Source: a virus (Duplodnaviria > Heunggongvirae > Uroviricota > Caudoviricetes). From it: a DNA stretch of 47,096 nucleotides. Under the pieces are notes generated by a model. It did no database searches, was not told the origin of the DNA, and was given only the letters and a program-made list of their open reading frames with translations. The stretch is from the IMG/VR virus record IMGVR_UViG_2802429246_000002. One strand, given 5' to 3'. Made by a program: the position numbers and the translations under genes. This document shows, in pieces, positions 39,331-40,273 of this stretch. The number at the start of each line of letters is the position of its first letter. Position 1 is the first letter of the stretch.

Positions 39331-39630
39331 GTGAAAAAGTTAAGCCGACTTGAAAAATATCACATGAACAAGGTTTCAATGCGCAGTCCGTCAAAGATTG
39401 TCGCCGTTACTCCTGCGGCGATAGAGATCGAAAAACGCGCGATTGAAAGAGAGAAAAAAGGGCAGTTCCGCATTGCCGCTCACCTTTGGCTTCAGTGTAT
39501 GGATGTTGCTTCTGGTGATGTTGAGCGTGCGAGGATCGCGGTTCGCAGGGACCAATGTATCACAAAAGGTAACGGCCTTCGCCGTGGCGACTATAGCGGC
39601 ATAGGATGTTGTGGGGTGGTTTATGACTAA
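39331..39630 (+). CDS. PerC/Pch-family transcriptional regulator-like protein
   Basis: Segment AIEREKKGQFRIAAHLWLQCMDVASGDVERARIAVRRDQCITK parallels the PerC-family core as recalled; GTG start. Confidence 0.45.
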   Translation: MKKLSRLEKYHMNKVSMRSPSKIVAVTPAAIEIEKRAIEREKKGQFRIAAHLWLQCMDVASGDVERARIAVRRDQCITKGNGLRRGDYSGIGCCGVVYD

Positions 39631-40273
39631 GAAATACACACTAATCTATGCAGATCCACCCTGGGTATACCGGGACAAAGCCGCAGATGGTAATCGCGGT
39701 GCCGGTTTTAAATATCCGGTTATGAGTGTGCTGGACATCTGCCGCCTTCCTGTGTGGGATTTGGCCGATGAAAACTGTCTGTTGGCCATGTGGTGGGTGC
39801 CAACACAACCACTCGAAGCACTAAAAGTTGTTGAAGCCTGGGGATTCCGTCTGATGACCATGAAGGGATTCACGTGGATAAAATGTGGTAGTCGACAACC
39901 AGATAAACTGGTTATGGGTATGGGACACATGACTCGCGCCAATAGTGAAGATTGCCTGTTTGCGGTAAAGGGAAAACTACCTCCGCGCATTAATGCAGGT
40001 ATCGTTCAGTCATTTACCGCACCGCGGCTTGAGCATTCAAGAAAACCAGATATTGTTCGTGAAAAACTTGTGCAATTGTTAGGCGATGTTTCTCGCATTG
40101 AACTGTTCGCCCGCCAGACGTCTCATGGCTTCGATGTTTGGGGTAATCAGTGCGAAGACCCGGCAGTGCAACTACACCCTGGATACGCGTTGGATATTGC
40201 CGGATTAACAAATGCATTCAGCAATGCTCCGCTGTCACCAACAGACAACCAGGGGCGGGAGCGTGCAGCATGA
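39623..40273 (+). CDS. DNA N6-adenine methyltransferase, MT-A70-like (orphan)
   Basis: N-terminal LIYADPPW motif (DPPW catalytic motif); no adjacent restriction endonuclease gene. Confidence 0.7.
   Translation: MTKKYTLIYADPPWVYRDKAADGNRGAGFKYPVMSVLDICRLPVWDLADENCLLAMWWVPTQPLEALKVVEAWGFRLMTMKGFTWIKCGSRQPDKLVMGMGHMTRANSEDCLFAVKGKLPPRINAGIVQSFTAPRLEHSRKPDIVREKLVQLLGDVSRIELFARQTSHGFDVWGNQCEDPAVQLHPGYALDIAGLTNAFSNAPLSPTDNQGRERAA

Follow-up and report, generated by a model that had tools for sequence, protein, structure and literature searches.

An orphan MT-A70 family adenine methyltransferase gene of a phiV10-like prophage and its probable Dam-like target

What is modified by an adenine methyltransferase that a prophage encodes next to its integrase gene, with no restriction enzyme beside it? 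Here, we examined this question for a gene at positions 39623-40273 (+ strand) of the IMG/VR virus record IMGVR_UViG_2802429246_000002, a stretch of 47,096 nucleotides (nt) that is called the window below. With moderate confidence, we consider the product to be a small, orphan, autonomous, single-domain and circularly permuted beta-class MT-A70 enzyme of a Uetakevirus prophage, whose substrate is GATC in double-stranded DNA (dsDNA). Both the GATC specificity and the autonomy are what we infer from its relatives. The gene and the two parts of it on which most of the argument turns are as follows, with the sources of each assignment, including the list of open reading frames (ORFs) and the AlphaFold2 (AF2) model, in parentheses.

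39623..40273, + strand: MT-A70 family (beta-class) N6-adenine methyltransferase gene, 216 amino acids (aa), stop codon included in the coordinates (ORF list, sequence, Pfam, PADLOC, PHROG, AF2, Foldseek)
39653..39664, + strand: codons of catalytic motif IV, D11-P12-P13-W14 (sequence, alignment to the DPPW of Tetrahymena MTA1, conservation in homologues)
40184..40270, + strand: C-terminal tail, residues 188-216 (YALDIAGLTNAFSNAPLSPTDNQGRERAA), specific to the phiV10-type enzymes (BLASTP, homologue alignment, AF2)

The ORF starts with an ATG at 39623 and ends with a TGA at 40273, and its 216-aa product has the N-terminus MTKKYTLIYADPPW. An alternative GTG is present at 39611, four codons 5' of the ATG; the ATG is favoured because the N-termini of homologues begin with the same MTKKY. 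The Pfam MT-A70 profile (PF05063) matched the product over its entire length (positions 1-172 of 172; E 6.1e-22) with 78.8 bits at a cut-off of 23.9 bits, which is far beyond chance. Matches were also obtained for PHROG 359, 'DNA methyltransferase' (E 3e-120), and for the Type II methyltransferase model of PADLOC, MTase_II (E 7e-77). The top solved structures were Tetrahymena MTA1 (E 6e-13) and human METTL3 (E 6e-6), and a residue-by-residue alignment to MTA1 revealed that DPPW, the EDCLFAVKG block, HSRKP and ELFAR all have their counterparts in the phage protein. The latter three blocks, which bind the cofactor, are located C-terminal to motif IV, the permuted motif order.

The preliminary description of this DNA had recognized an MT-A70-type N6-adenine methyltransferase by a DPPW motif near the N-terminus, and both statements were confirmed: the motif, which fits the motif IV consensus (D/N/S)PP(W/Y/F), occupies residues 11-14 (nt 39653-39664) and is conserved in homologues, and the family assignment agrees with Pfam, with the motif alignment and with the predicted fold, from which catalysis is predicted. 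It had also suggested that the motif might prove degenerate on closer alignment, and this was not the case. Among 46-48 homologues, P12, W14, S139, K141, P142, E160, F162, W173 and G174 are invariant, and D11, P13 and N175 are conserved in at least 90%. The AF2 model, for which two rows from phage records were left out of the input alignment, has a mean predicted local distance difference test score (pLDDT) of 82.7 and a predicted template modelling score (pTM) of 0.82, and Foldseek superimposed it on the catalytic domains of METTL3 and MTA1 with E 5e-14 and a template modelling (TM) score of 0.68.

The target site had been described as unknown. Experimentally tested relatives now narrow it to probably GATC, an estimate that is carried over from those relatives to this enzyme. 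M.EcoGV and its homologues on Shiga toxin 2 (Stx2) prophages are listed as GATC enzymes (Forde et al., 2019, PMC6602927). According to a later report, M.EcoGV of Shiga toxin-producing E. coli (STEC) O104 is highly similar to M.EcoPA8orf6770P, an enzyme of the Shiga toxin (Stx) phage phiPA8, and methylates GATC in vivo when overproduced (Gong et al., 2023, PMC10810198); this result, whose primary source is Fang et al. (2012), is given here at second hand. When p32 of Serratia phage BZS1 was expressed alone in a dam- host, the DNA became MboI-resistant and DpnI-sensitive, which indicates GATC methylation (PMC7556043). In the same article, M.EfaBMDam of Tn1549 is reported to be GATC-specific and 41% identical to BZS1 p32.

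All of these enzymes are related to the one studied here. Gap-free alignment of its core (residues 1-187) with the methylase encoded by P13374, an O104:H4 Stx2a phage, gives 83% identity, and that methylase is in turn 99.5% identical to PA28 gp05; the latter is likewise 83% identical to our protein over residues 1-187. Identity is 40% to BZS1 p32, 45% to HK639 gp35 and 45% to an MT-A70 gene of a conjugative element found on Enterococcus faecium plasmids. We infer that the E. faecium gene is M.EfaBMDam because its identity to BZS1 p32, 41%, equals the figure published for that enzyme. If so, the two outer GATC enzymes, BZS1 p32 and the E. faecium protein, are no closer to each other (41%) than to the enzyme in the window (40 and 45%), which falls by sequence within a Dam-like GATC clade of MT-A70 proteins formed by M.EcoGV, BZS1 p32 and the putative M.EfaBMDam. 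Since reported GATC enzymes bracket the protein in sequence, GATC is the best estimate, and it is most likely that the substrate is dsDNA at GATC, as for Dam. One check proposed in the preliminary description, in which a lysogen is compared with a cured strain and the lack of a new methylated motif counts as refutation, is not valid in that form: a dam+ lysogen would show no new motif because its GATC sites are already methylated by host Dam.

Alternatively, since the GATC assignment comes from relatives, the protein might be an orphan methyltransferase that modifies adenine in DNA at some other site or is relaxed in its specificity. Relative to the Stx-phage enzyme, 17% of the core residues differ, some of them in the loop 85-105, which likely touches the substrate and whose residues 102-104 were modelled with low confidence. 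Furthermore, more distant homologues come from phages whose alpha-proteobacterial hosts do without GATC methylation. However, the GATC enzymes lie on both sides of the protein in sequence (one of the three, M.EfaBMDam, by the identification given above), and no indels separate it from its 83% identical relative. Moreover, the loop 85-105 differs greatly between BZS1 p32 and the E. faecium enzyme; if both target GATC in spite of this, the loop does not set specificity. Another target is, in our opinion, unlikely.

The location of the gene bears on when a Dam-like enzyme would act. The window contains a Uetakevirus prophage, similar to phiV10 and epsilon15, that is integrated next to guaA. Both window halves match phiV10, TL-2011b, ZX5, EC.W1-9 and related phages with 96-97% identity, and the gene order of the region agrees with annotated phages (phiV10 and TL-2011b). 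The features around the methyltransferase gene, including a helix-turn-helix (HTH) protein gene, are listed below.

35975..36559, + strand: HTH repressor-like gene, equivalent of phiV10 p40 (ORF list; phiV10 and TL-2011b annotation)
36580..36599, + strand: terminator-like hairpin 3' of the repressor-like gene (consensus scan; a phiV10 terminator is annotated at the same place)
36651..36679, + strand: sigma-70-like promoter, TTGACA-17-AATCAT, presumed start of a PL-like operon (consensus scan)
37164..37985, + strand: exonuclease VIII-like (RecE-type) gene (Pfam DUF3799; NCBIfam exodeoxyribonuclease VIII, C-terminal part)
37982..38923, + strand: RecT gene (Pfam RecT)
38973..39221, + strand: AlpA-like excisionase or regulator (Pfam Phage_AlpA; PHROG 66)
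39218..39334, + strand: 38-aa hydrophobic ORF, equivalent of phiV10 p35, overlapped at both ends (translation; phiV10 annotation)
39331..39630, + strand: PerC/ANR-like small protein, 99 aa from a GTG, with an 8-nt overlap with the methyltransferase start (Pfam PerC; PHROG 868)
40270..40464, + strand: DUF1382 small protein, 64 aa, whose ATG overlaps the methyltransferase stop as ATGA (Pfam PF07131, E 1e-30)
40468..41718, - strand: P4-type tyrosine integrase, convergent with the operon (Pfam Phage_integrase and Arm-DNA-bind_3)
41911..43488, - strand: guaA, beyond the integrase (E. coli annotation of the flank)

Two small ORFs are present between the promoter-like site and the RecE-type exonuclease gene. 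The methyltransferase gene is the fourth of five overlapping, translationally coupled ORFs (alpA, the 38-aa ORF, perC-like, methyltransferase and DUF1382), whose successive overlaps are ATGA, GTGA, 8 nt and ATGA. The scan revealed no + strand terminator between the promoter-like site and the methyltransferase gene, and none before 41484. It is thus reasonable to place the gene distally in a PL-like early-left operon that contains recE-like and recT genes and runs towards int, by analogy with the lambda PL operon; on the strength of the promoter-like site, the missing terminator and the overlapping ORFs, its earlier placement in an early operon holds. For the product of the perC-like ORF, the Pfam PerC match has an E-value of 6e-7 and 30.1 bits (cut-off 22.6), and that of NCBIfam ANR_neg_reg is sub-threshold. 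The DUF1382 protein is 49-51% identical to the product of the gene 3' of the Stx-phage methyltransferase.

As to how a Dam-like enzyme might serve the phage, the operon would be switched on after infection or induction, and the enzyme would use S-adenosylmethionine (SAM) to methylate the N6 position of adenine. Host Dam is limiting on fast-replicating DNA, and a phage-borne enzyme could keep the rapidly replicating phage DNA fully methylated at GATC. Systems that cleave GATC when it is unmethylated would then spare this DNA, and the hemimethylated GATC signal used by MutH and SeqA would be lost as well. Loss of that signal might aid recombination by the co-expressed RecE/RecT proteins through a damping of mismatch repair, which is a speculation from general knowledge; the physiological role as a whole is speculative. 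The enzyme is taken to act autonomously for two reasons: BZS1 p32 showed its activity by itself, and none of the neighbours is conserved from one relative to another, the gene immediately upstream varying among them.

Several points weigh against an autonomous GATC enzyme. Purified M.EcoPA8orf6770P was nearly inactive on dam- DNA in vitro, and its complex with a small protein, PNB-2, consumed SAM preferentially with 16S rRNA and 30S subunits (Gong, Chakraborty and Koudelka, 2023, PMC10810198). For M.EcoGV, methylation of GATC was seen on overproduction, a condition under which off-target methylation can arise. We also considered whether avoidance or enrichment of GATC could serve as a clue to the target and rejected it as uninformative, since the observed/expected ratio is 0.72 in the prophage and 0.64 in the host flank, similar to those of other palindromes. 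In the literature consulted, we found no methylation assay or other experimental test of any copy of the phiV10-type enzyme. Finally, a conserved 29-residue tail that is predicted to be structured, together with a recurrent PerC/ANR-like neighbour, hints at a partner that alters the substrate.

The tail deserves attention as the part in which the phiV10-type and Stx-phage enzymes part company. The BLASTP alignment to PA28 gp05 ends at residue 187, and the tails of the two types beyond it are unrelated. The phiV10-type tail is also present in proteins from Salmonella (P0007) and Enterobacter hormaechei (P0067), the latter just 60% identical overall. In this region, AF2 predicted a beta-hairpin (182-191) and a helix (192-200) with pLDDT of 87-92. 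The idea that the tail type tracks the gene immediately upstream, as would be expected of a subunit swap of the PNB-2 kind, fails as a simple rule: the genes 5' of enzymes with the phiV10-type tail encode PerC here, a winged HTH (wHTH) ORF in Tyrion, DUF1317 in Salmonella, PDDEXK_5 in E. hormaechei and a phiTE_015 ORF in Cedecea.

According to the study of the Stx-phage enzyme, M.EcoPA8orf6770P and PNB-2, a 62-aa protein encoded directly 5' of it, are purified together in a 1:1 ratio, and the last ~27 residues of the enzyme were proposed to be important for this binding (PMC10810198). A corresponding explanation for the enzyme in the window is that it is a 16S rRNA (30S) methyltransferase, which forms a 1:1 holoenzyme with the PerC/ANR-like protein in place of PNB-2, modulates translation and hence influences prophage induction. 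Homology to the catalytic subunit is clear, with 83% identity over residues 1-187 to PA28 gp05; this protein is taken to represent M.EcoPA8orf6770P because both are gp5 in a gp7-gp6-gp5 layout. In addition, the RNA enzyme METTL3 is among the nearest solved folds, the perC-like ORF overlaps the methyltransferase start codon, PerC/ANR-like genes recurrently adjoin this methyltransferase clade, and the tail, as described above, is conserved and probably structured.

Other parts of that system are absent. The gene directly 5' of the methyltransferase is not that of PNB-2, as the PerC-like ORF has no BLASTP similarity to it; tblastn searches of the whole window for PNB-1 and PNB-2 gave nothing better than E 0.2, and the phiPA8 gp7 terminator sequence was not found in it. 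The STEC-type C-terminal ~27 residues, the proposed PNB-2-binding region, are replaced by an unrelated tail past residue 187. Furthermore, BZS1 p32 has an ANR gene directly 5' and yet methylated GATC when expressed alone, and perC and the methyltransferase gene of close relatives have one to three unrelated ORFs between them. The assignment to 16S rRNA itself was based on a colorimetric assay of SAM consumption, in which the modified base was not identified (PMC10810198). Taken together, an rRNA methyltransferase is distinctly unlikely here.

The upstream gene is not uniform among the Stx phages either. In the O104:H4 phage P13374, it encodes a 118-aa HTH regulator that is 53% identical to HK639 gp37, and PNB-2 shares with it just the C-terminal ~21 residues (…LYIDEFENAL; comparison of L001 3316-3504 with L093 3522-3878 on the - strand). 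These sequences suggest that PNB-2 arose by recombination and retained no more than the 3' end of the HTH-regulator gene, a relation that bears on the generality of the published PNB-2 holoenzyme model.

With regard to the PerC-like neighbour, we surveyed 76 loci of the MT-A70 clade in GTDB species-representative genomes (L096-L175). No other type of gene was directly 5' of the methyltransferase as often as a PerC/ANR-like ORF, which adjoins it in 11 of the 76 loci, with gaps of -10 to +1 nt; in 22 loci, such an ORF is located no more than 1.6 kb away in the same orientation. Small ORFs of this type are also present at L095 2822-3004 and at 39331-39630 of the window. The pairing occurs in both subclades of the methyltransferase (~70% and ~43-47% identical to the enzyme here), which are just 40-47% identical to each other and include the GATC-verified BZS1 p32. 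The PerC-like partners are ~22-51% identical to the one in the window, and one lacks any BLAST match. When ten adjacent ORFs were searched with Pfam, PerC was matched in all nine from genome loci (five above the gathering score), and BZS1 p33, which lies directly 5' of p32 and is annotated as ANR family, had no PerC match. As a comparative observation, this recurrent pair is new, if a small one. The two genes need not be associated: many loci have other upstream neighbours, and in close Uetakevirus relatives the one to three intervening ORFs encode DUF1317, wHTH, DndB-like or PDDEXK_5 proteins.

The space between perC and the methyltransferase gene is in fact an insertion hotspot in relatives (L085 1437-2504, L091 2498-3025, L083 2284-2511, L103, L104 and L144). 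DndB-like genes are found there in Salmonella phage SPC32H and C. werkmanii, DUF1317 and the wHTH ORF of Tyrion occupy the same slot, and a PDDEXK_5 nuclease-like ORF is present in E. hormaechei, K. pneumoniae ATCC 13883 and Superficieibacter. A few rare in-frame fusions of the PerC-like ORF to the methyltransferase were also noticed in Logan assemblies (P0004, 297 aa, and P0002, 263 aa). They were not used as Rosetta-stone evidence, as an indel or deletion in the 8-nt overlap would explain them most simply.

One could imagine a modular clade, in which a constant core is steered to GATC DNA or 16S rRNA, or switched, by interchangeable and translationally coupled upstream small proteins, with the PerC/ANR-like protein docking on the phiV10-type tail in the present case. 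If this were true, PerC/ANR proteins, which are known as virulence regulators, would double as partner subunits of methyltransferases. The PerC/ANR pairing and the tail are explained equally well by simple linkage inside a mobile module near int, and we regard the modular scheme as improbable.

The protein might also have no catalytic activity in vivo, whether because its gene is a passenger that is not expressed or because it serves as a regulator that binds SAM. In its native strain, M.EcoGV is said to be expressed weakly, the Stx-phage enzyme in purified form has hardly any activity by itself, and some sources name homologues 'S-adenosylmethionine-binding protein'. Nevertheless, all catalytic and cofactor motifs are strongly conserved, intact copies with at least 95% identity are found in many phages and in 514 E. 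coli genomes, and a DPPW-to-APPA mutation in the Stx-phage homologue abolished its phenotype (PMC10810198). A silent protein is very improbable.

The earlier statement that no cognate nuclease is nearby proved correct. The gene is flanked by the 99-aa PerC-like and the 64-aa DUF1382 proteins, neither of which has nuclease motifs, and Pfam, PHROG and PADLOC scans detected no restriction-type nuclease beside it or elsewhere in the window. Pfam was run on 20 further ORFs and PHROG on 10, three of which were among the 20; among the early-left operon products tested, the sole PADLOC match was the methyltransferase itself. Three nuclease-like ORFs were found, namely the RecE-type exonuclease, a DUF1064 resolvase-like ORF (33208-33552) and a zinc-finger ORF (7064-7792), and none is positioned as a cognate restriction enzyme. 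The last of these, on the - strand, encodes 242 aa and belongs to PHROG 6762 (function unknown), and its C-terminal part resembles endonuclease VII, HNH and Lar-like zinc-finger proteins; its location, ~32 kb from the methyltransferase gene and on the other strand, disqualifies it as a cognate nuclease. That the enzyme is the modification half of a restriction-modification system with an unrecognised nuclease, as its PADLOC class (Type II) and the PDDEXK_5 ORF directly 5' of the gene in some relatives might suggest, is already largely refuted here and has next to no chance of being true, given two small neighbours without nuclease motifs and temperate-phage relatives that carry the methyltransferase without a constant partner.

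Comparison with known systems places the probably Dam-like enzyme among several relatives. The Stx2a-phage enzymes (M.EcoGV, P13374, PA28 gp05 and M.EcoPA8orf6770P) share its position near int in the early-left region, with a DUF1382 gene 3' of them, but their last 21-29 residues are unrelated and their upstream gene encodes PNB-2 (62 aa) or the HTH regulator (118 aa) instead of a PerC-like protein; the activities reported for them conflict, GATC in vivo versus 16S rRNA with PNB-2. BZS1 p32 (of vB_SspM_BZS1; relative HK639 gp35) is similarly an MT-A70 orphan by xis/int with a small ANR-family gene directly 5', whereas it has a ~24-residue insertion in the loop after residue 88 and comes from a myovirus. 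M.EfaBMDam (Tn1549, Enterococcus) is also a small MT-A70 (beta2-class) enzyme reported to be GATC-specific; the E. faecium gene equated with it differs in being located in a Gram-positive conjugation module, between VirB6-like and PrgI genes, and in its length of 180 aa without a tail. The fold, the DPPW active site and the cofactor-binding motifs are common to METTL3-METTL14, which forms m6A in mRNA, and to Tetrahymena MTA1c, which forms 6mA in DNA. These, however, are only ~20-26% identical and are obligate heterodimers with an inactive paralogue, not encoded here, and with extra subunits.

Classical Dam enzymes of the alpha class (E. coli and T4) and the VT2 phage Dam presumably make the same G(m6A)TC product, and the orphan phage context is shared by M.EcoVT2Dam on Stx phages (PMC6602927). 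Between BZS1 p32 (beta) and host Dam (alpha), there is no sequence similarity, and a common specificity would be convergent (PMC7556043). The gene in the window likely duplicates host Dam activity and, judging by its relatives, would be a routine and largely ordinary prophage gene. Its value lies elsewhere: phage MT-A70 proteins are seen either as Dam-like GATC DNA enzymes or as partner-dependent rRNA enzymes that tune prophage induction, and as a natural PNB-2-free copy the gene could help to resolve this disagreement, since it can reveal how the core enzyme behaves when PNB-2 is missing. In this respect, its value is modest.

The gene is an already annotated and widespread prophage gene, and its family has characterised members. 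The same gene is found as phiV10 p33 and TL-2011b gp03 and as their equivalents in vB_EcoP_ZX5, PAS61 and the O157 typing phages 9 and 10, with 97.5-98.8% nt identity over 651 nt; the neighbours (perC, DUF1382 and int) and the phage type are the same as here, with no material difference. These copies are named 'putative adenine methylase' or 'MT-A70 family methyltransferase'. Of 5426 complete E. coli genomes, 514 (~9%) contain the perC-MT-A70-DUF1382 cassette with at least 95% identity, annotated under these very names by the Prokaryotic Genome Annotation Pipeline (PGAP), and 80 IMG/VR contigs carry the methyltransferase at 97-100% protein identity.

Several further observations were made in the window. 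The DUF1382 protein matches the PDB entry 8dsb, 'Xis (Excision72)', with E 6e-13, and members of the same family lie 3' of the methyltransferase in Stx2a phages; it may be the excision factor near int, instead of or besides the AlpA-like product of 38973-39221. No att repeat of at least 12 nt was found between the left end of the window and the guaA side, so the prophage probably continues past that end. In the host flank (guaA, guaB and xseA; 41900-47096), identity to every one of the 5426 complete E. coli genomes is only ~91-95%, and the prophage is 97-99% identical to E. coli phages; from these values, the host is probably a non-coli Escherichia or a member of a closely related genus. Rfam identified isrK (77.9 bits) and C4 antisense RNA (77.7 bits) in tandem (7957-8142, + strand), directly 5' of a Bro-N antirepressor ORF (8190-8885, + strand), an arrangement that looks like an RNA-controlled antirepressor module in the style of P1/P7 immI, in a phiV10-like podophage. 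A tRNA-Arg(TCT) gene (26985-27061, + strand) is located between the portal and terminase genes and adjoins a + strand ORF of unassigned function (27312-27917), which lies on the strand opposite to that of the structural genes.

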